32,000 nt of DNA, from contig CP126532.1 of assembly GCA_030167145.1 (NCBI GenBank), positions 4,830,001 through 4,862,000 on the forward strand. Reading direction: 5' to 3'. This document shows positions 4,694 through 32,000 of the stretch, one piece after another (the first letter of the stretch is position 1; each line of letters starts with the position of its first letter). The notes beneath the pieces were generated by a model. That model saw nothing but the letters and a program-made list of their open reading frames with translations. It made no database searches and was not told the origin of the DNA. The stretch is from Ktedonobacterales bacterium. Its GTDB lineage: Bacteria > Chloroflexota > Ktedonobacteria > Ktedonobacterales > JADMIN01. A program made the translations under genes and the position numbers.

Positions 4694-4792
4694 GCTTCAC
4701 GTGTCATGTTCCGTGGAGAAGGTATATCCTTCTTCACGGAGATTGCGGACCTATCTCTGGCTAGCCGTTGAATCTCCTCGGAGGGTTTTCAG

Positions 4793-9528: not shown

Positions 9529-10167
9529 CTAGTGCTCACGTGCGGACGCGCCCAACGCCCGACGGGCAATGCCAATGAGTGTGGGTGAGGCGGCGCGCTC
9601 ATCGCGTATCCAAAGGTGTACCACATGAAAGAGCCTGACATAGGTCAGCGTGATGACTGGTTGGAATCCAGCGGTGGCGAAACCCCGGATTGATGGTTGA
9701 TTCTGAAGCGATGCGCCAATCCACAGGCGATGGGTACCTTCATCGCGCACGGTGGCGGCGATGTGGCACAGCAGTGCGCTGTACAGACCCCGGCGACGGA
9801 ATGGCGGCAAGGTCGCGCAATCCCAGATATAGGCTTCGTCGCGTGAGAGACGAATTGGCCGTTCTAACTCGCCGATGCACTCCACGCCCCACGATACCCA
9901 TCCATAAGTGGCAATTGTGCCATCGAGCCATCCCGCGAAGCAGCGGCGACTGCCATCGAAACGCTTCAGTACCAGCGCGGGATCGGCGTATCCTATAGCT
10001 GCCGCGAGTCTTTCCACATCATCGCGATGTACTTCGGCAAAGTTGGCCGTGGCCTGTGGCGAGACCGCCGCAACAGATGCGCCCTCAGCACCTGAGCGGT
10101 CGCGGTCAGTAAAATCCATAGCCCACAAAGCGCCACGCTCAAATGCCCATGGGTGCTTAAGATGCAT
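9529..10167 (-). CDS. GNAT-family N-acetyltransferase
   Basis: 212 aa. Acetyl-CoA motif A PPFRRRGLYSALL. Confidence 0.75.
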   Translation of the reverse strand: MHLKHPWAFERGALWAMDFTDRDRSGAEGASVAAVSPQATANFAEVHRDDVERLAAAIGYADPALVLKRFDGSRRCFAGWLDGTIATYGWVSWGVECIGELERPIRLSRDEAYIWDCATLPPFRRRGLYSALLCHIAATVRDEGTHRLWIGASLQNQPSIRGFATAGFQPVITLTYVRLFHVVHLWIRDERAASPTLIGIARRALGASAREH

Positions 10168-15007: not shown

Positions 15008-15640
15008 ATGTGTGGCCGATATGAACTCATTGATGGACAACGAGTATTTCTGCGCTTCAACATCACCACCACGGCGCCACTGTTACGCGATGGTGTGCCG
15101 GATAATCTAGATGTGCGGCCAAGTCAACAAGTGGCCGCCGTGGTCGGCGATCAGGTGCTGCGGCTGATGCAGTGGGGGCTGGTGCCATTCTGGGCCAAGG
15201 ATGCGACGATTGGACACAAGCTCATTAACGCACGCGCGGAAGGCATCGCCGAGAAGCCATCATTCAAACGCCCGTTGCGGTCGCAGCGCTGCATCCTGCC
15301 AGCGTCGGCATTCTTCGAGTGGCGGGCGGCGCCAGGGGCAAAGACAAAGACCAAGTATCGCATTGGCCGCCGAGACGGAGAGTTGTTCGGGTTGGCGGGC
15401 CTCTATGACACCTGGACAAGCGCGAAGAACGGGGCGGATGCGGCTACCACGCTGACGACGTGTACGATCATCACCACAACGCCGAACGCGGTGGTAGCGC
15501 CGATCCATGACCGCATGCCAGTGATCCTGCGGCCAGAGGACGAGGCCGATTGGCTGAACCCTGACCTGAGCGAGCCAGAAGAGATTGTCACCTTTCTGCG
15601 CCCGTATCCTGAGGAATGGTTGGAAGCGCGGGTGGCCTGA
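15008..15640 (+). CDS. SOS-response-associated peptidase (SRAP/YedK family; abasic-site DNA-protein crosslinking)
   Basis: 210 aa. Begins MCGRY (catalytic Cys2). Contains WGLVPFWAKD and the INARAE...FEWR motifs. Confidence 0.9.
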   Translation: MCGRYELIDGQRVFLRFNITTTAPLLRDGVPDNLDVRPSQQVAAVVGDQVLRLMQWGLVPFWAKDATIGHKLINARAEGIAEKPSFKRPLRSQRCILPASAFFEWRAAPGAKTKTKYRIGRRDGELFGLAGLYDTWTSAKNGADAATTLTTCTIITTTPNAVVAPIHDRMPVILRPEDEADWLNPDLSEPEEIVTFLRPYPEEWLEARVA

Positions 15641-15649
15641 AGCGAGACG

Positions 15650-15682
15650 ACCGCCGTGAGCGAGTGCGCTGCTCACGGCGGT
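15650..15682. terminator. Perfect 12-bp stem hairpin between convergent genes
   Basis: ACCGCCGTGAGC / 9-nt loop / GCTCACGGCGGT, 10 nt after the SRAP stop. No U-tract follows. Confidence 0.4.
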
Positions 15683-15710
15683 GAACCTTGCATTGTCCGC
15701 CTCGTCAGGC

Positions 15711-15749
15711 AGGTCTCCTATCGGCAAACACGCGCCAGATAGGAGACCT
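15711..15749. terminator. Perfect 12-bp stem hairpin downstream of the minus-strand ABC-2 permease
   Basis: AGGTCTCCTATC / 15-nt loop / GATAGGAGACCT. No clear U-tract on either strand. Confidence 0.35.
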
Positions 15750-15771
15750 ACACAGCGATGAGACGACCTAT

Positions 15772-17421
15772 CTATCGCCCGATGTCTTTGCGTACAAACC
15801 GTGCCGAGGCCAGCGCCAGCGCCACTACTGTGATCGCCAGCACAAGCAGCATATCCCCTAGCGGCAAGCCATGCAGCAGCGGCGTACCGTAATAGTAGAA
15901 GGCGGACAGCCGTTGTACCCCCGCTGGCCAGTTTAGCTCTGGTCCAACAAACGTGATGAAGAACCAGATCACCAGCAAGAAACTCAAGAGGCCCGTATCC
16001 ACCGCGGCGCGCAGCCAGCCGGAGAATAGATAACCCAGCGCCGCCATCAGCAGCCCCAGCGGAATGATTGAGAGCGAAGCCGCAGCCAAGTTGCCCCCAT
16101 TGAGCGCCAGCCCGCTAGCCGCCGATGCCAACGTCGTCAACGCCAGTGTTACCATCGCAATGATCACCGTCGCCGTCGCCACTGCGGCGTATCGCGCCAG
16201 CACCACCGAGAGACGCGACTGCGGCGTCGCCAGCACCAGCTCTTGCAGGCCGTCTTCTTCATCGGCGGCCCAGCGCCCCGCCTGGGTGACGGCAAAGGCC
16301 ATCAACAGCACCGGCAAGAAGACGAAGAAGAAACTCAGCAGCGTGGCGTTGGTGTTCACATCTCCCCCGCCCACCTTGGTCAGCAGGTCTTTCAGCAGCG
16401 GCGAGCCTTCGTAGAGGGTTCTCAGTTTTTGCTCTGTTTGCTGAACGATGAAGATCATCCATGCCGAAAAGCCCGCGATAACTACCGTCCACCAGAACGT
16501 GGGAACCGCAATCGTCGCCAGACTGCGCGTATACACCGAGCGCAGCGACCAGGCATTCACCGGCAACGCCTGTTCTGGTCGCATCGCGCGTTTCGGCGGC
16601 TGTAGCCACTGTGGCAGCGCCACCGGCGCGCCCACATCGCGCCGCAGGAACAACCAGATCGCCGCCCCGCTCAATACTACGCTCAACGCTACCATCACCA
16701 GCATCGCGACAGGATTGCTGCCATAGCTCGGTATCAGCGGCTTGCTCAGGTTGTAGTAGTAAACCGGCGAAAGGCGTGAGATCCAATCGGTATCGGGAAT
16801 TACCCGATGGATCATATCCACCACGATGAAGAGCGCTAGCAATCCACCCGTAATGCCCGACGCCGTGCGCCGCTCCTGGGTGAATTGCGCGATGAGCAGC
16901 GCGATGCTCCCAAACACCCCGCAGATGAGCGCCAGATTCAGGCCAAACAGCAGAGACTCGCTCAAGGTAAACTCAGCATTTACCCGCGCGCCACCGGCAT
17001 ACGTCAGCAGCCCGATGAGCAGCGCCATCGCCAGCAGAGCCGTCCACATCGCCGCCAGTTTCTCCAGCACTACCAGCCCGCGTCCGCGCGGCTGCGAAAG
17101 CAGCATATCCAGCGAGCCACGCTCTTCCTCGCCACGCAGCATACGGCTGCCCACCAGTATCGGCCAGAGCGCCATCACCAAAATCGTAAAGCCATACTTC
17201 CAGGTGGCGTACCCGCCAGCGGTGTCAACCTTGATCGGCTCGGCGATCCACGCGAAGGAACCAGCCAGACTGACCAGTGACGCGCGCGCCTCCGGCGTCG
17301 CTATCACCGACGAGATGGCTGTCACCACTGCGTACATCAGCAAGCCCAGGCCGATGCCCCAGCCAAAAATGGCGATGCGAAAATCGCGCAGTGTTTTGAG
17401 ATAGACACTACCGAACCACAT
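15772..17421 (-). CDS. ABC-2-type exporter permease (large, ~12 TM)
   Basis: Highly hydrophobic ORF. I prefer the ATG at 17421 (MWFGSVYLKTLRDF), which overlaps the ATPase stop by 14 nt. The track start at 17463 is also possible. Confidence 0.75.
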   Translation of the reverse strand: MWFGSVYLKTLRDFRIAIFGWGIGLGLLMYAVVTAISSVIATPEARASLVSLAGSFAWIAEPIKVDTAGGYATWKYGFTILVMALWPILVGSRMLRGEEERGSLDMLLSQPRGRGLVVLEKLAAMWTALLAMALLIGLLTYAGGARVNAEFTLSESLLFGLNLALICGVFGSIALLIAQFTQERRTASGITGGLLALFIVVDMIHRVIPDTDWISRLSPVYYYNLSKPLIPSYGSNPVAMLVMVALSVVLSGAAIWLFLRRDVGAPVALPQWLQPPKRAMRPEQALPVNAWSLRSVYTRSLATIAVPTFWWTVVIAGFSAWMIFIVQQTEQKLRTLYEGSPLLKDLLTKVGGGDVNTNATLLSFFFVFLPVLLMAFAVTQAGRWAADEEDGLQELVLATPQSRLSVVLARYAAVATATVIIAMVTLALTTLASAASGLALNGGNLAAASLSIIPLGLLMAALGYLFSGWLRAAVDTGLLSFLLVIWFFITFVGPELNWPAGVQRLSAFYYYGTPLLHGLPLGDMLLVLAITVVALALASARFVRKDIGR

Positions 17422-18352
17422 GGCTCGCCTCCCTGGTAGTTTGCCCACCAGCCGCCGGGCCATCGCCCTCGTAGTAGCGCAGGAAGATTTCTTCCAGGCT
17501 GGGTTCCTGGCTGGTCAGCGTCACAATCGCATACCGCGCCGCCATCTTGATAACCATATCCACTCCGCCCGACACCGCCAGGCGCAGCGTATGCCCATCC
17601 GGCATGACTTCGACCTGCTCTACCCCTTGCAGATCCTTGAACGCCTCCACCGGCGCCGCCTCAGCAAAGGTAATCGTGACGTCATGGCGCTTGATGTCTT
17701 TTAGTTCCGTCACGCCGCCGACACGCACCAGACGCCCCTCGCGGATGATCGCCACGCGCGTGCAGGTCTGCTCCACCTCCGTCAGAATGTGCGACGAGAG
17801 GAAGACCGTGCGCCCCTCCTCACGCACTTCGGTAATCATGCGGTCAAACTCCTGCTGATTCAGTGGATCCAGGCCATTGGTTGGTTCGTCGAGAATCAGC
17901 AAACGTGGGCGGTGCATGAACGCTTGCACAATGCCGAGTTTGCGCTTATTGCCGCTGGAATACTGGCGAAACTTGCGAGTGGGATCGAAACCCAGCCGGT
18001 CAATCAACTGCTTCAGGTATGTCTGGTCAACCCCGCCGCGCAGATGTCCGAAGTATTCGAGTATCTGCCCGCCGGTCAGGTTCGGGTCCAGCGCCAGCTC
18101 GCCAGGCAGATAACCCACTATCCGCTTGATCTCTATCGACTGCTGCCATACATCCATTCCCGCGATACGCGCCATCCCCGCATCGGCCTTTAGCAGCGCC
18201 ATCAGCGTGCGGATCGTCGTCGTTTTGCCCGCGCCATTGGGGCCGAGGAAGCCAAAAACCTCACCTTCCTCTACCGCGAACGTCACGTCAATGATGCCGC
18301 GGCTGCTGCCGTAGCTTTTGGTCAGCCCCTGGGTCTCCAAAATCGCTGCCAT
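17408..18352 (-). CDS. ABC transporter ATP-binding protein (ABC-2/DrrA-like)
   Basis: 314 aa. Walker A GPNGAGKTT, signature YSSGNKRK, Walker B LLILDEPT. Confidence 0.9.
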   Translation of the reverse strand: MAAILETQGLTKSYGSSRGIIDVTFAVEEGEVFGFLGPNGAGKTTTIRTLMALLKADAGMARIAGMDVWQQSIEIKRIVGYLPGELALDPNLTGGQILEYFGHLRGGVDQTYLKQLIDRLGFDPTRKFRQYSSGNKRKLGIVQAFMHRPRLLILDEPTNGLDPLNQQEFDRMITEVREEGRTVFLSSHILTEVEQTCTRVAIIREGRLVRVGGVTELKDIKRHDVTITFAEAAPVEAFKDLQGVEQVEVMPDGHTLRLAVSGGVDMVIKMAARYAIVTLTSQEPSLEEIFLRYYEGDGPAAGGQTTREASHVVR

Positions 18353-18368
18353 GTTTTCAATGCCTCCC

Positions 18369-19127
18369 CTACTGAATGTGATCCTCGACTTCCCGGACTT
18401 TCTCCAGCCACTCCATCAAGTGCCGTTTGCCCACCGCACTATCGCTGGAGGACTGCTCTGGCTCTAGCCAGCGGCGAATCAGATCGCTGATCGGCTCGGT
18501 AAGCTCCTCCATAGAGGGTGTCTGCTCCATACCGAGAAGTTCAGGCGTGTTGATGATGCCAAGTTTCAGTGCGCTCGTCAGAAACACGATGACCGATGCC
18601 GGAAGATCTGCGCGGATCAGCTCCGCCTGCTGAAGCTGGACAATGTACGCCTCGTAATCACTGGTAAACCGGAGCAGCGTCGCTGGATCGAAAACGTCCC
18701 GTAGCCCCTGGTAAATATCCGTCTTGCCCTTCATGATCGCCGCCAGTAGCGGATTGGCAGCAGCAACAAGCATGGCATGTGTCCACAGACGATGCGGCAA
18801 TCCACCCTGTGGGTCTGCGGCAATGCGCTGCTGCACATCCGCGTTCGCCTGTTGCTGCGCACGAATGAGCGCGGCGCGAAAGAGCGCATTCTTATCCTTC
18901 CAATGCAAGTAGATCGTGCCCTTGGCCACACCCGCCTCACGCGCCACATCGTCAATCGTCGTTTTACGATAGCCCCAGCGCACCATGAGCGTAGCAACAG
19001 CATCCAGAATGCGCTCCTCGCGAAGCGTCCGCTCATCAGGTTGCTGTGGTGGCCCATCGCCTCTTGGCCTTTGATCGCTGGTGATGTCACTCATGCTGCT
19101 ACTTGTGGTCTTGCTACTGGTTGCCAT
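18369..19127 (-). CDS. TetR/AcrR-family transcriptional regulator
   Basis: HTH YRKTTIDDVAREAGVAKGTIYLHWKDKNALF. ATG at 19127 (MATSSK) after GAAGGGA; ATG 19094 is an alternative. The track ORF extended to 19415 would overlap the kinase gene. Confidence 0.85.
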   Translation of the reverse strand: MATSSKTTSSSMSDITSDQRPRGDGPPQQPDERTLREERILDAVATLMVRWGYRKTTIDDVAREAGVAKGTIYLHWKDKNALFRAALIRAQQQANADVQQRIAADPQGGLPHRLWTHAMLVAAANPLLAAIMKGKTDIYQGLRDVFDPATLLRFTSDYEAYIVQLQQAELIRADLPASVIVFLTSALKLGIINTPELLGMEQTPSMEELTEPISDLIRRWLEPEQSSSDSAVGKRHLMEWLEKVREVEDHIQ

Positions 19128-19329
19128 AGATCCCTTCGTTCCTTGTCGCGCACATGTGACTCGATGAACGATATGAACTGAATCAACGTTTCTGGTCATA
19201 CAGTAATCCGAAAGAAACCGAAAATCAAGAGTAAGATTTCCAGTGAGTCCGGCGGGTCGTTCCGGCTCGAAAGGGCCAGGCAAGTGACGCAGTATCGGCG
19301 CCCCTTGCGCGCCCTGACCGGTTACATCG

Positions 19330-20652
19330 TTACTGGTCCAGAGTTGCTGTGGCGACGGTGGGAAGTGAGAACCAGAAGATAGCGCCTGCGCCTGGTGCGC
19401 TGTCAACGCCGACATGGCCGCCGTGACGCTCGATCAATTGACGCGTGATAAAGAGGCCCAAGCCCAGACCCACCCTGGAGCCGCTCTGCACTTCGATGCC
19501 TGGCACGCGATAAAATCGGCCCCAAATGCGCTCCTGGTCCTCTGGCAGCAAGCCTGGTCCTTCATCGCGTACACGAACTATGACAGATTGGGCGACATCA
19601 CCTTCTATCGCAATGTCCACTGTGATTGGCCGGCTCTCTGGCGAATATTTTAGGGCGTTGGTCAGGTAGTTGGTCAGCGCCTGGCGCAACTGATCTGGGT
19701 CTCCATTGCACATGGCGCGCTGCTCCGCTCGCGTCACGATAATCGTCCGCTCTGGGTAGATCACCTGCTGCTCGTTGATACAATCGCGTACCAGCGCGAC
19801 CAGATCCAACTCTTCGAGATGCAATTCAAGTTTGCCGCCCTGAATCCGAGACACCTCCAGCAGATCGGCTACCAGCCGCTCCTGTCGTGTGATTGCGGAG
19901 GAAGCCCGCGTGACGAGTGTGCGCGTCACTATGTCGTCGGCGCTAAGATTGTGCTGCTTGTCTCGCGTCGCACGGCGCTCAAGCAATTGCAGAATGAGTT
20001 TGAGTGTGGTCAGCGGAGTGCGCAACTCGTGGCTTGCGATGCCGATAAACTCGTCCATCCGCCGGTTGGCCTGGGTCAGTGAAGTCACCAGCTCCTCGGC
20101 GCGTGAGCGCGCGGCCTCTGCCGCGCTGCGGGCGCTGGCCAGCTGGCCAGCGAGCATACTGACGGCGGAACCGATGGCAACAAACACGAGTAGCCCCCAT
20201 ACATCGGCATCTTCGTCAATGGCAAACGAGAAGGGCGGCGGGAGGTCGAGAAAATCGAGCATGAGCGCGCCAAACCAGGTAGCGAGCAGACTAGCCCCAG
20301 CCCCGAAGGCGAGCGCGGCCAGCACCACGCCCAGCAGGCTAAATGCATCTACGAAGCCAAAGTCCGGCAATACGCGGATCACCAGCAGCATCAACAGTGC
20401 GGCCAATACCTGGCCCAGCAGCGCCAGTACGTAACCAGTTCGGGGGCGCCGCCAGCCAGCCGGGAGCCAGGTAGGCGTGAGTGAATTGGCGCGGAACCAC
20501 TGCTCGCCACTTCGCGCGACCGCTACACACTGGCGCCACACGAAGGCTATAGACCAATTCTCCTCGACGCCAGCTTCGGCAGGCGGCGCATTCGACTCAG
20601 GGTGCTCCTCCTCGTGCTGGGAGTTCGTGGGGTCCAAGAACCATACCTCCAA
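19330..20652 (-). CDS. Membrane sensor histidine kinase (orphan)
   Basis: H-box SHELRTPLT, N/G boxes (NALKYSP, DEGPGL, GLGLGL), N-terminal TM bundle. The track start is a TTG, so the true start is uncertain. Confidence 0.85.
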   Translation of the reverse strand: MEVWFLDPTNSQHEEEHPESNAPPAEAGVEENWSIAFVWRQCVAVARSGEQWFRANSLTPTWLPAGWRRPRTGYVLALLGQVLAALLMLLVIRVLPDFGFVDAFSLLGVVLAALAFGAGASLLATWFGALMLDFLDLPPPFSFAIDEDADVWGLLVFVAIGSAVSMLAGQLASARSAAEAARSRAEELVTSLTQANRRMDEFIGIASHELRTPLTTLKLILQLLERRATRDKQHNLSADDIVTRTLVTRASSAITRQERLVADLLEVSRIQGGKLELHLEELDLVALVRDCINEQQVIYPERTIIVTRAEQRAMCNGDPDQLRQALTNYLTNALKYSPESRPITVDIAIEGDVAQSVIVRVRDEGPGLLPEDQERIWGRFYRVPGIEVQSGSRVGLGLGLFITRQLIERHGGHVGVDSAPGAGAIFWFSLPTVATATLDQ

Positions 20653-21112: not shown

Positions 21113-24100
21113 ATGCCGATTACGCTGCACATACGGCTGCTTGGCGGATTTAGTGTACGCGCTGACGACACCTCCGTGAGCGGCCTCAACACGGCGCGAC
21201 TGCAATCACTCTTCGCCTACCTGGTGCTACATCGTGACACCCCTGAACTGCGTCAGCACGTCGCGTTTCTTTTTTGGCCCGATTCAAGCGAGGCGCAGGC
21301 GCGCAATAATCTGCGCCAGATCGTGCATTTGTTGCGCCTCGCTCTGCCCGACGCCGACCGTTTTCTGATTGCGGATAACCACACGCTCGGATGGCGACTT
21401 GATGCTCCATTTCGTCTCGACGTCGAAGAGTTTGAGCGTGCGTTGGCTCAAGCGGATTCAGCTGCGCGCCAGGGTGAGCCAGCGGCGGAGTATACCGCAT
21501 TGGAGCAGGCGGATAGCCTCTACCAGGGAGATTTGTTGCCCAGTTGTTATGACTCCTGGATCACACCCGAACGTGAGCGACTTCGTCAGCGGCATCTGCA
21601 CGCGCTCACGCGCCTAGTGGCTCTGCTGGAGGCACGGCAACAGTATGATCGCGCCATTCATCACGCGCGTCGCATTATTCGCGATGATGCGCTCAACGAG
21701 GAGGCCTATCAGAACTTGATGCACTTGCTCGTCCTGCAAGGCGACCGCACGGGCGCGGCACGTGTATACCATGCTTGCGCGTCCGTTTTGCAGCGTGAAT
21801 TGGGCATACATCCCAGCCGAGCGACGCGCGAAGCATACGAGCAATTAGTGCGGGGGAACGCAGGCGATACCTCAGCCGTCGTGGGACATCCCGCCAGCTT
21901 CATCACGCCGACTTTAATCGGGCGACAGCTTGGATGGGAACAATTGCAGACGGCCTGGCGTCGTGCCAATGATGGACAACCGGGCTTTGCTCTGGTGACT
22001 GGTGAAGCAGGTATCGGCAAATCTCGTCTGGCCGAAGAACTGTTGCTCTGGGCGAACCAACAGGGCGTGTTGACAGCGAAAACGCGCTCATATGCCGCCG
22101 AGGGGCAGCTCTCGCTCGCGCCGGTGATCGAGTGGCTACGCAGCGAGCGGCTGCGACCGCATCTAGCGCGTCTGGACTCGGTGTGGCTCGTAGAAGTAGC
22201 GCGCATCCTTCCAGAGCTATCGAACGAATATCGGGACCTGCCGCTGTATCAGCCAATAAGCGAATTGGGGCAGCGCCAGCGCTTCTTCCAGGCGCTTGCC
22301 CAGGCGGTGCTTGCCGCGCCACCGCCGCTCCTGCTGGTAATTGACGACTTGCAGTGGTGTGACCAGGAAACCCTGGAATGGTTGCACTTTCTCCTACGCT
22401 TCGATCCTTCTGCACGCCTGCTTGTTGTTGGTTGCGCGCGCTCCGAAGAACTGCCGCCGGACCACCCACTGCGGACATTGCTGCGGCATCTGGGCAACAC
22501 GATTGGAGTCACCGAGATCGCTTTGCAACCGCTGGATGCAGCCGAAACCGCTCAATTGGCACACCGGCTTGCCAGCCGAGAGCTGGATCTGGACACCACG
22601 ATGCGCCTTTTTCGCGAAACCGAGGGAAATCCTCTGTTCGTCGTGGAGGCGATGCGAGCTGGACTTGACCAATTGCCAGGGGGGCCAGAGCGGGACGCGC
22701 ACTCTGCAAGCAGTGTTCATGAGTGGCTGGCTTCCAGCCCCATCGGACTCTCGCCGCGTGTCCAGGCGGTGATCGCCGGGCGGCTGGCGCATCTCTCGAC
22801 GCCTGCGCGCGAATTTGTTGGGCTGGCCGCAGCCATTGGTCGGGAATTCCAACTGGATGTGCTGGCGCATGCCAGCACCACGGACGAAGAAAGCGCTCTG
22901 CGTGCGCTGGACGAGCTGTGGCAGCGGCGTATCGTGCGTGAGCAGGGCACGCGCAGTTATGACTTCACTCACGACAAATTGCGCGAGGTAGCCTATGCCG
23001 AGATCAGCGCGCCCCAGCGCCAACTAGTACATCGTCGTATCGCGCGGGCGCTTGCAACCATCCACGCCGACGACCTTGACCCGGTCAGCGGCCAGATCGC
23101 GACGCAATATGAGCGCGCGGGCATGAGCGAACAGGCTATTCCGTTTTACCAGCGTGCGGCGGCAGTAGCCCGCGGCGTGTACGCAAACGAAGACGCCATC
23201 GCCTTCCTCGGGCGGGCGCTCGCGCTTCTCCAAGACCTGCCTGCCACGACGAAGCGCGACGAGCAAGAATTGGCCCTGCAATTGGCGCTAGCCCCCATTT
23301 ATCGTATTACGCGTGGCTGGACTGCCCCTCAGTTGGAGCAGGTGGTCAACCGCACATTGCTATTGTGCGATTTGGTCGGCGCCGATGGGCAGCGCGCCGA
23401 TGCGCTGTATGGCTTGCAAGCGTTGCTAGTGGTGCAAGGGAAACTTGAAAAGGTGCAGGTGGTTGCGGACGAATTAGAGTCACTCTACCAGCGCATGCAA
23501 GTCGCCGCGCCGCCGCTTTCACGGATGATGCTGGCAGGTGCTCGCATGCATCTTGGCCGATATGCTGATGCTCGCGCTGCATTCGAGCACGTGCTGACCC
23601 ATCGCGACCCGCTGCAACAGCGAGACCTGCAAGAGTCGCAGGGGTGGAACTACGCGGTTCACACACGTGCCTGGCAAGCTCATACCTTATGGCTCTTGGG
23701 GTACCCAGCGCAGGCGCTCGCCTCCGGAGAGGAAGCGATCCACCTGGCGGGGGAGTTGATACAGCCCTTCAACCAAGCATTGGCGTCTACGTATCTGGCG
23801 ACGCTGCATCAGTTGTGTAGCGACCATGCAACGGCTCGGGCGAGCGCCGAAAATGCGCTGGCTCTGACGAGCGAGTACAAAGCGCCCTACTACCACGCAT
23901 GGTCTGCTATTTTGGTCGCCTACGCCGAGGCGTGGGAACAGCCCGATGCAGAAGCCATCCTGCGGCTGCGCAACGCGATTGAGGATTTCAAGGCGAGTGA
24001 CGCCCGGCTCCGATTGCCGTACTATCTCTGGCTTGTAGCCCGCGTCCAGACCCAAGGTGGGCAGACTGAGGAGGCGTTGGCGACGCTAGACGAGGCGCTC

Positions 24101-26746: not shown

Positions 26747-26910
26747 ATGGCACTCCTTTGGCGGTCGGCAATCAGCCCCTTCATGCCTATGATAGTCCCG
26801 CCACTTCACATAGGCGTCACGCGTGAGGCTGCACCATCACACGCATCTCTCAAGACGAGGTGCCTGACCAGGTATATGGCGCATTCGCAAAAGTGGTTCA
26901 AATGATGTGT

Positions 26911-26950
26911 TGTCAGGTATGGTCAGATGCCGTCAGATGGGGTCAGATAC
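26911..26950 (+). repeat. Four helically phased 10-bp direct repeats GTCAG(A/G)Tnnn
   Basis: gtcaggtatg / gtcagatgcc / gtcagatggg / gtcagatacg, starting at exactly 26911, 26921, 26931 and 26941. Confidence 0.9.
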
Positions 26951-27015
26951 GGCCAAGAGGCGCCATGGATCCGCGGGGATAGGGGTGAGGGTGCGGCCAG
27001 GACGTCGCTTCACTG

Positions 27016-27045
27016 TTGACAGGATGGTGTGCGCTTCTGCATAAC
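27016..27045 (+). promoter_or_regulatory. Putative promoter of the imuB-dnaE2 cassette
   Basis: TTGACA (27016-27021), 18-nt spacer, -10-like CATAAC (27040-27045). Confidence 0.5.
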
Positions 27046-27048
27046 GAT

Positions 27049-27062
27049 AGAACATGCGTTCT
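27049..27062. promoter_or_regulatory. LexA (SOS) box, GAAC-N4-GTTC type
   Basis: AGAAC ATGC GTTCT has perfect palindromic arms. It lies directly after the -10 and 27 nt before the imuB ATG. It is the only such site I found in the window. Confidence 0.75.
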
Positions 27063-27088
27063 TGTTTAGCGAAAGGGAGGCGGTCGGT

Positions 27089-28543
27089 ATGCGTGAGCTA
27101 CAGGCGGACGATGTGGTGTGCGCGGCGCTGCCGGAGGTGGGGGCAGCAGACGTGGTGGGGACGGCTGAGTATGTGGCGTGGGTGCAAATCCAAGATGTTC
27201 ACCGTGCGCTAGGTGCGGATACGGCGCAATGGGACCAGACATGGCAGCGGCTGTGCTGGCAGGTGACGGCACGGATGGAGATCGTGGAGGGTAGAGAGGA
27301 TGGGAAGGCGGAACTTAAGGGGAGCGATACGCATGGAGCGCATAGAGCGGGCGCACTGGCGGGCAGCCCTCTTCGGAACGACTCAGAGGGACTGCGCTTC
27401 ACTGGTGCGCTGCTGGCGCTGGGGTGGTGCGCGGCGACGGAGGCGGCGGGTGTGGCGCACGGGCTGGTGGGACGGCTGGCGGCGGCAGGCTACCGGGCGC
27501 GGATGGGCATCGGGCCAAATGCGACGCTGGCGCAATTGGCGCTCCAGTGCGGGAGAGCGGCGAGCAAGCTGAAGGGGCAAACGGTGGTGGTGGTGACGCC
27601 GGGGGAGGCGGTGGAGCGGTTGCTGGCGCGGACGCCGGTGGGGGCGCTGGCGGGGCTGCATCCGCGCGGGGTGGTGACGGCGGAGACGGTGGAACGATTG
27701 CGGCGGTATGGGCTGCGGACGTTGGGGCAGGTGGCGCGGCTGGTGGAACGCTCCGGGGAGGTGGCGCTGCGGCGGCAGTTTGGCCCAGTGGTGGGGGGCG
27801 CGCTGGTGGCGCTGGCACGGGGCGAGGAGCTACGTCCGTTGCAGCCGACGATGCAGCCGGAGACGTTGCGCTGTCGAGTGCGCTGGGTGATGGGTGGCTC
27901 GGCGACACAGGTGGGGGTAGGGCTGGGGAGGCTGGCAGAGCGAATCGCGGGGACGCTGGCGGAACGGGAGCAGGCGGCGGGACGGCTGCGGCTGCGGGTG
28001 GTATGGGCGCATGGTGGGGTGACGGAAGCGGAAACGCGGCTGCGCGAGCGCATCTCTGAGGCGCGACGGGTGGCGGAGGGTCTGCGGGCGCTGTGGGAGC
28101 AGTTCGTGGACCAGGACACCGACCACGGCGCAGAACATAGGGAAAATGGGCAAGGCAGGCAAGGCTGGGAGCGGCGCGCTGAGGTAGCAGACGTGGCAGT
28201 GGAGATAGAGGATTTGGTGGTGGTGCGACCAGCGCAGGGGGCCTTCTGGAAAGGGAGCGTGCAGCAGAATGCGACACTTTCGGTGCTCCGTGCGCGCGTG
28301 CGCGAGCGATTTGGTACGGGGTCGCAGGGGTTGGGACAGATCACATGTGTCGCGCCGGAGGCGGTGTTTGCGGAAGAGCGGTATGTGGTGGATGAGGGGA
28401 GCGATGAACAGATGGGCGGGCACCCGACACGGCCCACGCGGCTGGCAGGGGAGCGAGCGGCAGTGAGGACGGCAGACGGCAGCGCGGAGCGCGTCTGTGG
28501 CAATCCCTGGGCGGACGTGCCGCTGCGCTTGCATTGGTGGTGA
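27089..28543 (+). CDS. imuB: ImuB-like Y-family DNA polymerase homologue (probably catalytically inactive)
   Basis: The ATG at 27089 lies 8 nt after AAGGGAGG. MGIGPNATLAQLAL corresponds to the Y-family GIAPNKxLAK motif. An HhH/thumb region follows (LPVGALAGLHP...VERLRRYGLRTLGQVARL), then little-finger-like strands (RLRLRVVW...VAVEIEDLVVV), then QGAFW (28235-28249), a candidate beta-clamp motif. I could not recognise an N-terminal acidic catalytic triad. Confidence 0.8.
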   Translation: MRELQADDVVCAALPEVGAADVVGTAEYVAWVQIQDVHRALGADTAQWDQTWQRLCWQVTARMEIVEGREDGKAELKGSDTHGAHRAGALAGSPLRNDSEGLRFTGALLALGWCAATEAAGVAHGLVGRLAAAGYRARMGIGPNATLAQLALQCGRAASKLKGQTVVVVTPGEAVERLLARTPVGALAGLHPRGVVTAETVERLRRYGLRTLGQVARLVERSGEVALRRQFGPVVGGALVALARGEELRPLQPTMQPETLRCRVRWVMGGSATQVGVGLGRLAERIAGTLAEREQAAGRLRLRVVWAHGGVTEAETRLRERISEARRVAEGLRALWEQFVDQDTDHGAEHRENGQGRQGWERRAEVADVAVEIEDLVVVRPAQGAFWKGSVQQNATLSVLRARVRERFGTGSQGLGQITCVAPEAVFAEERYVVDEGSDEQMGGHPTRPTRLAGERAAVRTADGSAERVCGNPWADVPLRLHWW

Positions 28544-28550
28544 GCAAGCC

Positions 28551-28889
28551 ATGGGCCATGTGTATTCGCAGGTGATTGCGGTGATAACTGCTGCTGCGGG
28601 GGAACGACCGGAGCGGCTGGTATGGCGTGGGCGAGAGTATACGGTGGCGGAGGTGCTGAGCACGTGGCGGCTGCGGGATCGCTGGTGGGAGGAGCTGCCA
28701 CCACTTTCGGATGCACTCGAACCAGGAGAGCAACCACAACCTGGACAACCAGGGCACGGCCAGGGGCGACGGTTGGGAGGTGCGAGCGAGCGGACGTACT
28801 GGCGGGTGCGGTGCGTAGAGGGGATGATCTGCGACGTGTATGAAGATGCGGCGCGGGGGGTGTGGATGCTGGATAAGGTCTATGACTGA
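28551..28889 (+). CDS. Small W/R-rich protein (112 aa) wedged between imuB and dnaE2; possible detached ImuB C-terminal module
   Basis: The ATG at 28551 lies 7 nt after the imuB stop, with GGTGGTGAG as an SD-like element. NNG codon periodicity resumes exactly at this ATG. The stop overlaps the dnaE2 ATG by 8 nt. Sequence motifs: ...WRLRDRWWEE...YWRVRC...GVWMLDKVYD. Confidence 0.7.
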   Translation: MGHVYSQVIAVITAAAGERPERLVWRGREYTVAEVLSTWRLRDRWWEELPPLSDALEPGEQPQPGQPGHGQGRRLGGASERTYWRVRCVEGMICDVYEDAARGVWMLDKVYD

Positions 28890-31800
28890 GATGCTGACAG
28901 AGAGCGAGCGAGCAGCAGGCAAGGATACAGGCGGCGGTGGGAGAGCAGACGGCAGACGTTGGGAGACGCCACTCAACGGCGATGCGGGAACAGGTACAGG
29001 GCCTACAGAGTACGGGGACTACGTGGAGTTGCACTCCGCGAGCGCGTACAGTTTCCGGCGGGCGGGGAGTAGCGTGGAGGCGTTGGTGGCGCGGGCGGTG
29101 GCGCGGGCGGCGGCGCTGGGGACGGAGCGGGGCATACGGGCGCTGGCGCTGACGGACGAGATGACGCTGGCGGGGGTGGTGCGCTTCCAGGCGGCGTGCG
29201 CGGAACACGGGGTGAAGGGGATCGTGGGCTGCGCGCTGGCGGTGAGCGAGCCGCACTTTGGGACGGGGGCGGCGGGGCGACAACCGGCGGAAGTGGTGGC
29301 GCTGGCGGAGAATCAGACGGGGTATGCGCGGCTGTGTGCGTTGCTGACGGCGGCGAATCTGCGTGCGCCCGATGCGCCGGTGATTGCTTTCGCAGAACTG
29401 GCGGCGGAGCCAGAAGGGCTGATCTTGCTGACGGGTGGGCCAGAGGCGGGGACGCTGGCGCGGTTGGTGCGGGCGGGACGGCGGCAGGAGGCGGTGGCGG
29501 TGGCGCGGCGGTACCATGCGGTGTTTGGCGCAGAGCGAGTGTTCGTGGAGGTGCAGCAGCAGCGGTTGCCGGAGAGCGTGGGGCTGATGCAGGGGTTGGT
29601 GGAGGTGGCGGCAGAGGCGGGGCTGCGGGTGGTGGCGACCAATGGGGTGCGCTATGCGACACGGGCGGAGTACGCGGTGTATGACCTGCTGACCTGTGTG
29701 CGGCTGGGCATCTCGGTGGATGTGGCGCACCGGGAGCGGCCACGCAATGACGAGGCGTATCTGAAGTCGGATGCGGAGATGCGGGCGCTGTTCGCGGGGC
29801 TGCCGTGGGGGGAAGCGGCGCTGGCGGCGACGGGGGAGATTGCGGGGCGGTGCGCGGTGGCGCTGCTGCGGGGGACGTGTACGGCTCCGGCGGTGGCGCT
29901 GGCGGATGGGGAGACGCCGGACGAGCGGCTGGCGGCGCTGTGTGAGGAGGGGTTGTGGACGCGGTATGGAGCGCCTGTGGGACGGGATGCAGGCGACGGG
30001 CAAGGGCAGGTTGGGCAGGTTGGGCAGGTTGGGCAGGTTGGGCAGGTTGGGCAGGTTGGGCAGGTTGGGCAGGTTGGGCAGGTTGGGCAGGTTGGGTGGA
30101 CGAGAATACAGGCAGAGGGCGAGGCAGGCCTCGCCCCTACACCGTCCCCACCAGCAGCAGAGCAGTTGCCAGAAGAGGCGATGCCAGAAGCATTGCGGGC
30201 GGGGAGTGCGCCGCGGCGGCAACTGGCGCATGAGTTGGACGTGATTGGGCGGTTAGAGTTGGCGGAGTTTTTTTTGTGTGTGCGGGAGATGGTGAGCGCG
30301 GCGCGGGGGATGGGGGTGCGCATCAGCGGGCGGGGGTCAGCGGCGAACAGCCTGGTGGCGTATCTGCTGGGCATTACCGGGGTGGACCCCATCGCGCATG
30401 GGCTGCTGTTCGAGCGGTTCTTGAATCCAGAGCGGCGGGGGATGCCAGATATTGACCTGGATATTCAGAGCGACCGGCGGGAGGAGGTGATTCGCTGGGT
30501 GGAACGGCGGTACGGCCACGAACATGCGGCGATGGTGGCGAATGTGATGACGTATCGGGCGCGGCTGGCGCTGCGGGATGTGGCGAAGGCGCTGGGGTAT
30601 CCACTCGACGTGGTCAACCAGATGACCAAGGTGCTGCCGCACTACTGCGGGCGAGGGGAGATCGCGGGGTATGCGGAGGAGCTGGCGGGGGTGATTGCGC
30701 GAGCGGCGCAGGGACAGGGCGAGGTAGGCCTCGCCCCTACATCCACCAGACGAAGAGGGTGGACTACAGAGATAGGGCTGCGGCGGCTGCCGCTGGCGCT
30801 GGGGTTGGCGGCGCGGGTGTGTGGGTTGCCCCGGCACCTGAGCTTGCATAATGGGGGGATGGTGCTCTCGCGGGCGCGGCTGGCGGCGGTGTTGCCGGTG
30901 CGGGTCTCGGCGAATGGGGTGCGGGCGCTGGAGGTGGATAAAGACGATGTGGAGCGACTGGGACTGATCAAGTTCGACCTGTTGGGGTTGCGGACGCTGG
31001 GGGCGGTGGCGGAGGCGTTGACGTTGATCGAGGAGACGACGGGGACACGGCCGGATGTGGACCAGTTGCCGACCGAGCCGCCGGATGAACAGACGATGCG
31101 CCTGATCCGGGCGGGGCAGACGCTGGCGGTGTTTCAGATTGAGTCGCCGGGGCAGTGGCATTTGCTGGCGCAGACGCAGCCGGAGACGTTCAATGATCTG
31201 ATCGTACAGACGGCGTTGTTTCGTCCGGGGCCGATTCAGGGCGGGTTTGTGCGGCCGTATGTGGAGCAGCGCAGGGAAAAGCATGGGCAATGGCAGTGGG
31301 AGAGTCTCCAACGGGAGCAACAACAGGCAGAGCAACAACAGGCAGAGCAGCAATGGGCAGAGCAGCGGGATGCGGTGCAGACGCCGTGGCAGAGCGGTCA
31401 GGCGGATACCTTCTGGACGGGGCATGCGGTGCTGGGGCCGATCCTGCGGGAGAGCGAGGGGATTCTACTGTTTCAGGAGCAGATTCTGGAGATTGCGCAT
31501 CAGTTCGCGGGGCTGAGCTATGCCGAGGCGGATGGGTTCCGGCGGGCGATGTCGCATCAACGGGAGCCGGAGCAGATGGCGGCGATGCGGGAGCGGTTCG
31601 TGGCGGGGGCCATCGAGCGGGGGGAGACGGCGGCGGATGCGGAGCGGGTGTTCGGCGCGGTGTCGGCGTTTGTGGGGTATGGGTTCTGCAAGAGCCATGC
31701 GGCGGAGTTCGCGCGGACGATCTATCAGACGGCGTGGCTGAAGGCGCACTATCCGGCGCACTATCTGGCGGCGTTCCTCTCGGCGCAACCTGCGGGGTTC

Positions 31801-32000
31801 TTTCCGCCGCATGTGGTGCTGGAGGAGGCGAAGCTGCTGGGGGTGCCGGTGCTGCCGCCGGAGGTGAACCGGAGCGAGGGGCGGTTCACGGTGGAGTGGG
31901 TGGGGCAGCATGGTACAGCGGGGAGCCGGTATGCGCGGTGGGGGATCCGGATTGGGTTGGCGCAGGTGCGAGGGGTGGGGGAGGAGTTGGCGCGGGCGAT
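28882..32000 (+). CDS. dnaE2: Error-prone DNA polymerase III alpha-subunit paralogue DnaE2 (ImuC); 3' end outside window
   Basis: Own translation of frame 1; the frame is open to the window edge, so it is absent from the ORF track. YVELHSASAYSF (PHP), GRGSAANSLVAYLLGITGVDPI, FERFLNPERRGMPDIDLDI, LPRHLSLHNGGMVLS, GLIKFDLLGLRTLG, VFQIESPGQ, ALFRPGPIQGG, LLFQEQILE, GYGFCKSHAAEFA. An ATG at 28891 is an alternative start. Confidence 0.9.
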   Translation, partial: MTEMLTESERAAGKDTGGGGRADGRRWETPLNGDAGTGTGPTEYGDYVELHSASAYSFRRAGSSVEALVARAVARAAALGTERGIRALALTDEMTLAGVVRFQAACAEHGVKGIVGCALAVSEPHFGTGAAGRQPAEVVALAENQTGYARLCALLTAANLRAPDAPVIAFAELAAEPEGLILLTGGPEAGTLARLVRAGRRQEAVAVARRYHAVFGAERVFVEVQQQRLPESVGLMQGLVEVAAEAGLRVVATNGVRYATRAEYAVYDLLTCVRLGISVDVAHRERPRNDEAYLKSDAEMRALFAGLPWGEAALAATGEIAGRCAVALLRGTCTAPAVALADGETPDERLAALCEEGLWTRYGAPVGRDAGDGQGQVGQVGQVGQVGQVGQVGQVGQVGQVGQVGWTRIQAEGEAGLAPTPSPPAAEQLPEEAMPEALRAGSAPRRQLAHELDVIGRLELAEFFLCVREMVSAARGMGVRISGRGSAANSLVAYLLGITGVDPIAHGLLFERFLNPERRGMPDIDLDIQSDRREEVIRWVERRYGHEHAAMVANVMTYRARLALRDVAKALGYPLDVVNQMTKVLPHYCGRGEIAGYAEELAGVIARAAQGQGEVGLAPTSTRRRGWTTEIGLRRLPLALGLAARVCGLPRHLSLHNGGMVLSRARLAAVLPVRVSANGVRALEVDKDDVERLGLIKFDLLGLRTLGAVAEALTLIEETTGTRPDVDQLPTEPPDEQTMRLIRAGQTLAVFQIESPGQWHLLAQTQPETFNDLIVQTALFRPGPIQGGFVRPYVEQRREKHGQWQWESLQREQQQAEQQQAEQQWAEQRDAVQTPWQSGQADTFWTGHAVLGPILRESEGILLFQEQILEIAHQFAGLSYAEADGFRRAMSHQREPEQMAAMRERFVAGAIERGETAADAERVFGAVSAFVGYGFCKSHAAEFARTIYQTAWLKAHYPAHYLAAFLSAQPAGFFPPHVVLEEAKLLGVPVLPPEVNRSEGRFTVEWVGQHGTAGSRYARWGIRIGLAQVRGVGEELARA
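30004..30096 (+). repeat. Perfect 9-bp tandem repeat (CAGGTTGGG x10) inside dnaE2, encoding (GQV)10
   Basis: Ten identical units span 30007-30096, preceded by ggg. The array is codon-aligned with the dnaE2 frame. Confidence 0.98.
30116..30141 (+). repeat. 26-nt GC-rich palindromic element, copy 1 (in dnaE2 frame)
   Basis: aGGGCGAGGcaggCCTCGCCCctaca: an 8-bp stem GGGCGAGG/CCTCGCCC with a 4-nt loop. 25/26 identical to copy 2. Confidence 0.9.
30716..30741 (+). repeat. 26-nt GC-rich palindromic element, copy 2 (in dnaE2 frame)
   Basis: aGGGCGAGGtaggCCTCGCCCctaca, exactly 600 bp after copy 1 and therefore in the same codon phase. Confidence 0.9.
31315..31374 (+). repeat. Decaying 15-bp tandem repeat inside dnaE2 (EQQQA EQQQA EQQWA EQRDA)
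   Basis: gagcaacaacaggca x2 (perfect), then gagcagcaatgggca, then gagcagcgggatgcg. The array is codon-aligned. Confidence 0.85.

Follow-up and report, generated by a model that had tools for sequence, protein, structure and literature searches.

A strand-asymmetric, G-rich block around a dnaE2 cassette in a Ktedonobacterales genome and its possible origin in prophage-like DNA

Why should an operon for an error-prone DNA polymerase be written largely in codons that end in G, when most of its neighbours in the same chromosome are not? The question is raised by a stretch of 32,000 nucleotides (nt; hereafter, the window) from a Ktedonobacterales bacterium (Chloroflexota; assembly GCA_030167145.1, contig CP126532.1, positions 4,830,001 to 4,862,000), which is part of a 5.07-Mb contig filed at the Joint Genome Institute (JGI) as 3300045419 Ga0494333_323. 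At its right-hand end lies a three-gene operon with a LexA box upstream, made up of a Y-family-polymerase-like (PolY-like) gene, a DUF6504 gene and dnaE2. An original prediction, made from the letters of the window, had pointed to the codon bias of this cassette and had offered horizontal acquisition, a strand-specific mutational process or selection for a G-rich transcript as its causes. We have analysed the locus (L001) to 4.5 kb beyond the window, the window coordinate being the L001 coordinate + 17088, and have compared it with other loci of the same genome and of other genomes. The reading that we favour, with a probability of about 0.45, is a strand-asymmetric substitution bias of mosaic prophage-like mobile DNA in this genome, with the cassette as its cargo.

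Size and limits of the G-rich block

Change-point analysis set the limits of the block at L001 9783 (support 9755-9889) and L001 15997 (support 15785-16023). The former equals window position 26871 (support 26843-26977), about 220 bp upstream of the first ATG; its right-hand limit falls within the ~215 bp that follow the dnaE2 stop, where a weak tail of approximately 200 bp is seen. The switch in composition had been predicted to be abrupt, to cover the whole cassette and to begin with the first gene; it is abrupt and does cover the cassette, but it sets in ~220 bp upstream of position 27089 and lasts to 32871.

Over this 6.0-kb block the GC skew is +0.358 at a GC content of 0.681, against -0.005 at 0.591 in window positions 1-26870. 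The frequencies of G and C at third codon positions (G3/C3) are 0.62/0.15 in the first gene, 0.50/0.15 in the DUF6504 gene and 0.67/0.13 in dnaE2, compared with about 0.25-0.49/0.24-0.40 in the 22 other genes of the window. At fourfold degenerate sites the cassette has G.758, C.086, A.102 and T.053, and the 22 neighbouring genes G.369, C.334, A.149 and T.148. Codons of the NNG type account for 66% of the cassette and 35% of the background, and the share of GGG and CGG among glycine and arginine codons rises from ~20% to ~65%. The hand counts given in the original prediction were reproduced exactly (NNG in 17 of 20 codons at 29101-29160 and at 29461-29520 and in 6 of 20 at 21113-21172; 33 G, 16 C, 7 A and 4 T at 29101-29160 and 18 G, 20 C, 11 A and 11 T at 21601-21660), and the strong bias that it described is confirmed, although 'almost every codon' amounts to about two thirds of them. 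In twofold pyrimidine-ending codons the C fraction is.479 in the cassette and.549 in the background, a shift towards T in the predicted direction but a weak one. Ordinary GC3 pressure had rightly been set aside; avoidance of C, however, is an incomplete description, since G rises against C, T and A alike, and the pattern is a gain of G at the cost of all three.

The asymmetry pervades the operon transcript, in which C exceeds G in 1.3% of 78-nt windows; the corresponding figures are 39% on average for neighbouring genes, a median of 51% for dnaE2 orthologues and 98% for the antisense strand. After the dnaE2 stop the C/G ratio is back to ~1, and a bubble of C>G follows ~215 nt downstream. Antisense stop density in the cassette is 0.3-1.2 per 100 triplets versus 2.6-2.7; all three antisense frames are stop-poor through composition and stay open for up to 913 codons. 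None of 30 antisense stop triplets spans a G3 position and the antisense products have no Pfam matches, which bears out the mechanical explanation that had been proposed for the giant antisense open reading frames (ORFs).

A bias of nucleotides rather than codons

The cassette bias acts on nucleotides and not on codons or tRNAs. The G:C odds at fourfold sites have moved about 10-fold whatever the preceding base (odds ratios of.09,.10 and.11 after C, T and G), all eight fourfold codon families are shifted in the same direction, and twofold sites yield consistent base weights. Uniformity across contexts and families is therefore evidence against the dipyrimidine context of ultraviolet (UV) damage, the TC context of a deaminase and tRNA-specific selection. 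A UV or deaminase signature was also rejected on its own terms, as the apparent depletion of CC and TC vanishes when codon boxes are compared with those of the host, and codon-biased translation, which would involve only particular synonymous families, was rejected because all families, codon positions 1 and 2 and non-coding DNA are shifted.

Indeed, the G frequency at codon position 1 is.461 versus.374±.022 in 25 orthologues, and that of C is.290 versus.352±.012; at position 2, G reaches.266 versus.215±.012. DnaE2 insertions specific to this lineage have G at.60/.35/.57 of codon positions 1, 2 and 3. The 51 replacements unique to this DnaE2 at conserved columns bring a net +0.42 G each, the highest value among 17 sequences, and are mostly C>G changes (L>V, P>A, P>R, A>G and R>G), and glycine makes up 12.2% of the protein versus 7.1±0.6% in orthologues. 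On an amino-acid proxy of G pressure this DnaE2 lies 5 standard deviations (sd) beyond 120 homologues, while the rate of protein evolution is only marginally raised (mean DnaE2 identity.653 vs.659-.689). In non-coding leaders and spacers, G/(G+C) is.58-.82.

The bias is uniform along the operon; a 5'-to-3' gradient was looked for and is absent. Runs of three or more G are not enriched over synonymous-codon shuffles (z -1.6 to +0.7), and the G-tracts of dnaE2 are depleted against such shuffles (runs of four or more G, z -3.1; G-quadruplex (G4) motifs, z -2.7), with GGGGGG found 7 times where 22 are expected. A G4 or R-loop element, or selection for G4 structures, was rejected, as the clustering of G-tracts is no higher than composition gives; so was a reduced mRNA structure, the folding energy being 0.9 sd from that of GC-matched orthologues. 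Neither a Chi-like or KOPS-like oligomer nor an avoided endonuclease motif is prominent among thousands of k-mers, where |z| is ~5 at most and the missing words are short palindromes only. The hexamer palindromes GGCGCC, GCCGGC and CAGCTG do not occur in the operon (27089-32000), where synonymous shuffles predict 3-5, an absence that could reflect avoidance of restriction sites.

The same bias at other loci of the genome

A search with the DUF6504 protein found three proteins only, all on the same 5.07-Mb contig: that of the operon and two paralogues, P0122 and P0123 (80% and 75% identity). The paralogue loci, L164 and L165, lie 1.5 Mb and 0.12 Mb from the operon. All three loci share a promoter module of GGTCAGATGC-type repeats, TTGACA, an 18-nt spacer, CATAAC or CATAGT, and an exact LexA box. 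The repeats, present in 3 copies at the operon, in at least 5 at L165 and as a diverged GGGGACACAT variant at L164, look like iterons or protein-binding sites. At L164 and L165 the module is joined straight to the DUF6504 gene, with long G-rich leaders and no PolY-like gene between nor a dnaE2 gene alongside, and these orphan genes may either have an SOS role of their own or represent decaying copies of the cassette. L164 further contains 186 nt left over from the dnaE2 3' end, together with part of another DUF6504 gene. The cassette pieces at both loci are as G-biased as the operon, with a GC skew at third codon positions (skew3) of +0.60 to +0.86.

In its gene content (HNH endonuclease, replication initiator, DnaC-like loader, PAPS reductase and P22-type antirepressor), L164 is prophage-like. 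Several of its genes that do not belong to the cassette are G-biased, namely the DnaC-like loader (skew3 +0.51), an ORF without assigned function (+0.65), the antirepressor (+0.75) and two small ORFs. The PAPS-reductase gene, by contrast, overlaps the loader gene by 4 nt and yet has a normal composition (+.02), as has a globin gene. A fragment of the antirepressor region is common to L164 and L165 in the same order, and we therefore take the two loci for decayed copies of one element that carried both antirepressor and cassette. Genes for DDE_3 transposases are found among the neighbours of the cassette pieces. Atypical composition, sharp edges, phage or mobility genes and multi-copy fragments, the hallmarks of an island or prophage module, are thus all present at L164 and L165; at the window locus, the evidence for an island is limited to composition, non-synteny and two tRNA-Met genes 5 kb downstream.

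Within this genome the bias is a class property and not specific to the operon. Over 60 sampled genes skew3 is bimodal, with 11 of the 60 above +0.5 at a GC content of.64-.70 versus.604 for the rest. Most neighbouring genes are unbiased; an NNG habit of the genome at large, or of all genes on this replichore strand, which would have spoken against the original prediction, is not what they show. Composition breaks sharply at gene and module boundaries. Among 108 homologues the antirepressor ranks as the most extreme outlier by the amino-acid proxy; a homologue with 57% identity, from another Ktedonobacterales genome, has a skew3 of -0.01.

A property of the DNA strand

The G-rich block of L164 contains a minus-strand gene (DUF4062/AAA/TPR, 17 Pfam families), the sense fourfold sites of which have C.67 and G.14. 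Read on the plus strand, it shows G.67, C.14, A.12 and T.07, matching the plus-strand genes of the G-rich class (G.69-.80). Directly downstream of the operon, an Amidase_6 gene (plus strand) and a STAND gene with HTH, NB-ARC and TPR domains (minus strand) have a common mirror composition, with C at.52-.57 on the plus strand; their block and the operon may together form an island of ~11 kb. No homology was detected between the two downstream STAND/TPR genes (E = 0.06). In every block examined, the G-rich strand has A>T.

As an opposite-strand gene within a G-rich block has the mirror composition, the bias is therefore a property of the DNA strand and not of the dnaE2 transcript, a conclusion drawn from the two blocks that hold genes of both orientations (the intact operon has no opposite-strand gene). 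A purpose at the level of mRNA or codons cannot explain the bias, because the transcripts of some of these genes are themselves C-rich and the remnants encode nothing. The proposal that a G4- or R-loop-prone mRNA throttles the polymerase is not supported, given that G-tracts are not enriched (and in dnaE2 depleted, z ~-3), that unrelated phage-like genes and the non-functional 186-nt dnaE2 remnant are biased too, and that the opposite-strand gene is mirror-composed. The same strand-referenced composition in both gene orientations, as replication would leave it, is seen in two opposite-strand cases; a replicon-wide polarity that switches at an origin or terminus is not seen in the ~77 kb inspected, where most neighbours show no skew and the mosaic blocks measure 2-11 kb.

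A cluster of ABC-transporter and TetR genes at window positions 15008-19415 has a moderate sense-strand G3 excess (skew3 +0.17 to +0.29) in both orientations. This pattern is at the level of genes, not strands, and is unlike the G-class blocks.

Comparison with other dnaE2 cassettes

The comparison set comprised ~245 loci in all, with ~160 dnaE2-bearing loci drawn from metagenomes as well as reference genomes. For the 946 genes at 160 dnaE2 loci that encode 300 amino acids (aa) or more, skew3 has a mean of -0.05, an sd of 0.135 and a maximum of +0.47; with +0.61 and +0.68, the operon genes are more than 5 sd out. A comparable skew was found in none of the ~160 orthologous cassettes, and the extreme bias is specific to this one genome among the loci compared. 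Unbiased orthologues of high nucleotide identity, which would have told against the original prediction, were not found in other genomes, the proteins of these cassettes being only 46-73% identical. The closest relative with DNA on record (identity of 73%) has a skew3 of -0.06, in a comparison that leaves aside contigs without DNA (two of the four best DnaE2 matches and one antirepressor homologue), and a metagenome scan for closer relatives gave none above 68% identity among the matches listed. In that closest relative (L162 3262-4875) dnaE2 is truncated to 837 aa, and the next gene has a faint match to phage integrases. That dnaE2 cassettes in general have such a bias was rejected: at the 84 loci where flanking genes were numerous enough, the sd of dnaE2 against its flanks was.143 versus.135 for other genes (Levene p =.70).

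Cassettes throughout Ktedonobacterales keep the gene order PolY-like gene, small protein, dnaE2, and no synteny of the cassette flanks with those of relatives was found. In most relatives of this order (L002-L023, L028, L082-L091) the cassette is 3-8 GC points above its flanks, which are never syntenic; this suggests that the dnaE2 cassette is generally mobile in Ktedonobacterales. One clade (L007, L008/L089, L009, L019 and L083; PolY-like proteins 72-78% mutually identical) has a C3 excess limited to the cassette, with a skew3 of -0.25 to -0.35 and flanks of ~0, opposite in sign to the window and inside the background range. Furthermore, two distant dnaE2 genes of 37-38% identity from an unknown phylum (L154 3-3182 and L150 2-2266) have G3 of.59 and C3 of.23-.24; that of L154, whose neighbour genes are unskewed, is possibly an independent, weaker case.

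Origin of the asymmetry

One strand of the blocks has an excess of G and a milder one of A, and the NNG codons would be the local face of this enrichment. According to the reading that we favour, a strand-asymmetric mutational regime would have built the asymmetry during the replicative or transcriptional life of an element lineage, and insertion, duplication and recombination would then have brought it into the chromosome; the NNG codons, open antisense frames, near-absence of C>G windows and proteins enriched in Gly, Val and Glu may be its passive consequences. Horizontal acquisition and a strand-specific mutational process, two of the causes put forward originally, are accordingly those preferred here, probably in combination. 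The size of the skew has a partial precedent in DnaE-bearing phage contigs of IMG/VR, in which the coding-strand skew has a median maximum of 0.15 and reaches up to +0.29, compared with a median of 0.06 at cellular loci. Single-strand deamination of the mitochondrial type is at odds with a depletion of T as well as of C.

Several observations weigh against this reading. The block (+0.36 at 68% GC) exceeds every comparison locus, and neither a donor nor a related element with the same composition was found in IMG/VR, among INPHARED phages or among PLSDB plasmids. The intact operon is without recognisable flanking mobility genes or an adjacent integrase, and the ~77 kb covered are a small part of the 5.07-Mb genome. 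Non-coding spacers, with G/(G+C) of ~.67, are milder than fourfold sites (~.90), a difference that a purely neutral mutational equilibrium would predict only if the spacers were younger or under constraint. The orphan DUF6504 branches carry 12 changes to G and 9 from G, against ~7 and 14 predicted for decay to the host equilibrium (p ~0.02, n = 21), and the pressure may still be acting in the chromosome. Finally, the block ends coincide with the transcription unit, as would also be expected of a transcription-linked process in place. A three-way polarisation of substitutions among the DUF6504 copies was discarded, as the 59 changes are too few and the operon branch is not polarisable.

It is less probable, and on the whole doubtful, that the asymmetry arose where it now lies, by transcription-coupled mutagenesis during the SOS response, units under LexA-controlled or prophage-induction promoters losing pyrimidines of the non-template strand to G. 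In one possible route, lesions in the template strand would be cleared by transcription-coupled repair and those in the non-template strand bypassed by the DnaE2 mutasome, whose error spectrum would thereby be imprinted on the units that SOS induces, its own operon among them. The skews that transcription is known to cause in bacteria are smaller by an order of magnitude. On the other hand, the block limits at all three loci match the transcription unit that starts from the conserved LexA promoter, and the G-rich class includes the cassette, the antirepressor and the replication loader, all of which are expected to be induced by SOS or with the prophage. The DnaE2-dependent mutations of Mycobacterium smegmatis after UV and H2O2 include the needed classes, C>T, T>G and C>G (PMC9346131). 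The mirrored genes are explicable by antisense read-through, the TPR gene lying downstream of the L164 SOS promoter and the Amidase_6 and NB-ARC genes downstream of two minus-strand tRNA-Met genes, and the balance of changes to and from G on the orphan branches, with no decay, agrees with a process still at work. Against this process, ~160 other LexA-type dnaE2 cassettes are unbiased, and dnaE2 as a class deviates from its flanks no more than other genes do. The DnaC-like and PAPS-reductase genes, probably on one transcript, differ sharply (+.51 and +.02), and the globin gene within the L164 unit is normal. Moreover, the odds shift depends on no dipyrimidine or TC context and follows no 5'-to-3' gradient, and the skew starts 100-300 nt upstream of the -35 element.

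Selection on the composition of the transcript or non-template strand seems improbable to us. A purine-loaded, C-poor mRNA would escape Rho or favour R-loops and in this way set the expression of the mutasome. Rho binds RNA rich in C over G, and the preference G > A > T > C seen here is the inverse of the composition of Rho-utilisation (rut) sites (PMC13650167, PMC6144790). The scarcity of C>G windows in the operon compared with neighbours and orthologous dnaE2 genes, the return of C/G to ~1 past the stop codon and the C>G bubble downstream of it all suit this explanation, and synonymous sites of constrained codons are more extreme than unconstrained sequence, as compensation towards a regional target would give. 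It is contradicted, however, by the unrelated phage-like genes and non-functional cassette remnants with the same bias, and by a genuine gene in a G-rich block that has a C-rich mRNA (fourfold C.67), the Amidase_6 gene doing likewise (.57). G-runs and G4 motifs do not exceed synonymous shuffles and runs of six G are avoided, the folding energy is unremarkable, and no other cassette has the bias. In addition, a ~10-fold shift in the odds per site would need unusually strong selection for an operon that is normally repressed.

Another improbable reading is that the cassette itself made the asymmetry, an element-borne mutasome of PolY-like protein, DUF6504 protein and DnaE2 writing pyrimidine-to-G errors on one strand. 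During SOS it would copy or gap-fill one strand of its carrier DNA and of co-induced prophage modules, either in unidirectional replication of an element with its own initiator and helicase loader or in synthesis coupled to transcription or R-loops. If true, the mutational signature of a polymerase would be fossilised in its own gene.

Codon-level control of translation, in which NNG codons would tie the cassette to tRNAs with C34 or a modified U34 and make its translation stress-gated or slow, is very unlikely. The effect is indeed greatest at third positions, with the NNG, GGG and CGG values given above. As the sole cause it is nevertheless largely refuted, since positions 1 and 2, insertions and non-coding DNA show the enrichment in G too, the shift is uniform over families, the host itself already uses the G-ending codon most often for Ala, Val, Leu, Thr and Pro, and a mirror-composed gene lies inside a G-rich block. 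An assembly or sequencing artefact, or real antisense genes, might be suspected in a contig from a metagenome assembly with antisense frames open up to 913 codons, but is hardly credible: the three ORFs are intact over 5.9 kb and their products are conserved, sequencing errors would not be limited to synonymous changes, the bias is found again at three separate loci, and the antisense products are of low complexity, without Pfam matches, their stop depletion in all three frames being compositional.

Relation to known systems

The blocks resemble the strand asymmetry of phages and replicons in that one strand is G-rich (here with A>T as well) whatever the strand of the gene, and most genes lie on the G-rich strand. 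Whole-locus coding-strand skews of this kind, from +0.15 to +0.29, occur in the DnaE-bearing IMG/VR phage contigs; here, the skew is +0.36 overall and ~0.8 at fourfold sites, at 68% GC, and it is confined to kb-scale mosaic blocks in an otherwise unskewed chromosome, rather than forming a replicon-wide polarity that switches at origin and terminus. In vertebrate mitochondria the G/C imbalance at fourfold sites is comparably extreme and is mutational rather than codon-selected; their G-rich strand is also T-rich, the signature of deamination in exposed single-stranded DNA, whereas in the present blocks it has A>T and both pyrimidines are depleted. With genomic islands and prophage modules they share sharp module edges, raised GC, multi-copy fragments, phage and transposase neighbours, nearby tRNA genes and non-synteny, but the anomaly is one of strand symmetry (G versus C), not of GC content or generic codon usage, and there is no identifiable donor. 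Immunoglobulin switch regions and CpG-island promoters are GC-skewed, R-loop-forming DNA with a G-rich non-template strand and a skew of ~0.3-0.4 over kilobases. By composition the operon block would likewise favour RNA:DNA hybrids; unlike them, its G clustering is not above what composition gives, it is protein-coding, and the asymmetry also covers an opposite-strand gene.

Among described mutasome cassettes, the operon resembles ImuA-ImuB-DnaE2 and split iPolY, ImuB-C and DnaE2 modules (PMC12926913) in the LexA box ahead of a Y-family-like gene and dnaE2, and differs in having no ImuA-like gene and a DUF6504 gene in the middle. No compositional asymmetry has been reported for those cassettes, and our literature searches gave nothing relevant about skewed GC or biased codons in imuB and dnaE2, about DUF6504 or about composition-based Rho resistance of transcripts. 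Blocks at kb scale with a mitochondrion-like G/C ratio of ~9:1 at fourfold sites in an otherwise symmetric chromosome are unreported in the literature searched and among the ~245 loci. They imply that, within one module, strand-asymmetric mutation can be the main influence on the base composition of bacterial genes and even on which amino acids these encode. In practical terms, gene calling and codon-usage-based detection of horizontal transfer can be misled, as antisense frames are open and the public dnaE2 start is miscalled. An SOS-controlled error-prone polymerase cassette also appears to be linked to prophage-like mobile DNA in Ktedonobacteria and, should the asymmetry prove to have arisen in place in the course of SOS induction, it would have preserved, as a natural archive, both the strand specificity and the error spectrum of a DnaE2 mutasome.

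Genes and regulatory features of the operon

The coordinates of the features are collected in Table 1. The first gene had been labelled imuB. An exact copy of its product is present on JGI contig Ga0494333_323; the protein has weak NCBIfam matches to Pol IV that extend from the palm to the little finger (E 4e-7; 29 bits, with the cut-off at 381) and zero matches in a Pfam search. It is 31-37% identical to the products of the same-position gene in relatives, and in one of these the positional homologue has a weak IMS_C match. What the label stands on is a weak Y-family match, and the operon departs from the canonical ImuA-ImuB-DnaE2 cassette in that there is no imuA or imuA' among its three genes; neither of the first two products matches a RecA-like family. 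By its place in the gene order, and with a size that is about right, the DUF6504 protein may be the standalone ImuB-C beta-barrel protein of a split module, in which it would accompany an inactive PolY and DnaE2.

The dnaE2 product has the Pfam domains PHP (PF02811), DNA_pol3_alpha (PF07733), finger (PF17657) and HHH_6 (PF14579), and its top NCBIfam model is NF004225, error-prone DNA polymerase (E 1e-233; 779 bits, under the model cut-off of 939). Over the full domain set it is 60-73% identical to proteins named error-prone DNA polymerase; with PHP, Pol III alpha, finger and helix-hairpin-helix domains and the error-prone model as the closest, it belongs to the DnaE2 family. The gene probably starts at ATG 28882, which overlaps the DUF6504 stop (ATGACTGA), or else at ATG 28891. 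With the likely start at 28882 the apparent spacer between the two genes would be coding, and the overlap suggests translational coupling. A survey of start codons and an alignment indicated that the start annotated by JGI (29074) removes a conserved YVELH N-terminus.

Table 1. Coordinates of the G-rich block, its genes and regulatory features, and related features at other loci (window coordinates unless a locus is named)
Feature	Position	Strand	Details
G-rich (purine-rich) strand block	26871..32000	+	goes on 871 bp past the window edge to the dnaE2 stop at 32871
Shared SOS promoter module	window 26871-27088; L164 9700-10000; L165 9640-10000
Direct repeats, GTCAGATGCC-type	26922..26948	+	2.7 copies, upstream of the promoter; Tandem Repeats Finder (TRF) and three-locus alignment
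Putative sigma-70-type promoter, TTGACA, 18-nt spacer, CATAAC	27016..27045	+	read by eye; conserved at L001, L164 and L165
Predicted LexA (Cheo-type) box, GAACATGCGTTC	27050..27061	+	sole exact GAAC-N4-GTTC in the 32-kb window
PolY-like gene	27089..28543	+	484 aa; G3 about 0.62-0.63
DUF6504 gene	28551..28889	+	112 aa; G3 about 0.50-0.53; Pfam PF20114, E 1.5e-14
dnaE2 (error-prone Pol III alpha)	28882..32000, past the window edge	+	stop at window-equivalent 32871 (L001 15783)
Perfect in-frame tandem repeat (GGGCAGGTT) x 10.3	30004..30096	+	encodes (GQV)n; TRF, 100% matches
15-nt purine-rich in-frame repeat (GAGCAACAACAGGCA) x 3.3	31315..31364	+	encodes EQQQA repeats; TRF
Mirror-skew block, bottom strand G-rich	L001 16223-21135, beyond the window		ends at two tandem tRNA-Met genes
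Orphan DUF6504 genes, LexA box upstream	L164 10001-10378; L165 10001-10393		80% and 75% identical to the operon copy

The putative promoter was not called by a consensus scanner because its second hexamer is without the final T. As at the operon, the equivalent LexA box is the sole exact one in L164 and in L165, and boxes precede approximately half of the cassettes of relatives. With the operator GAAC-N4-GTTC directly after its promoter, the operon is predicted to be a member of the SOS (LexA) regulon.

The (GQV)n repeat of dnaE2 sits within a 69-aa insertion seen only in this DnaE2 and supplies three of the six canonical G4 motifs of the operon; its perfect copies suggest a recent expansion by slippage, with possible length variation. 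Another perfect array, with a period of 51 nt and 100% identical copies over ~400 nt, is found at L165 4611-5007, where it overlaps the 3' end of an unannotated minus-strand ORF (4278-4955) beside a DDE_3 transposase gene.

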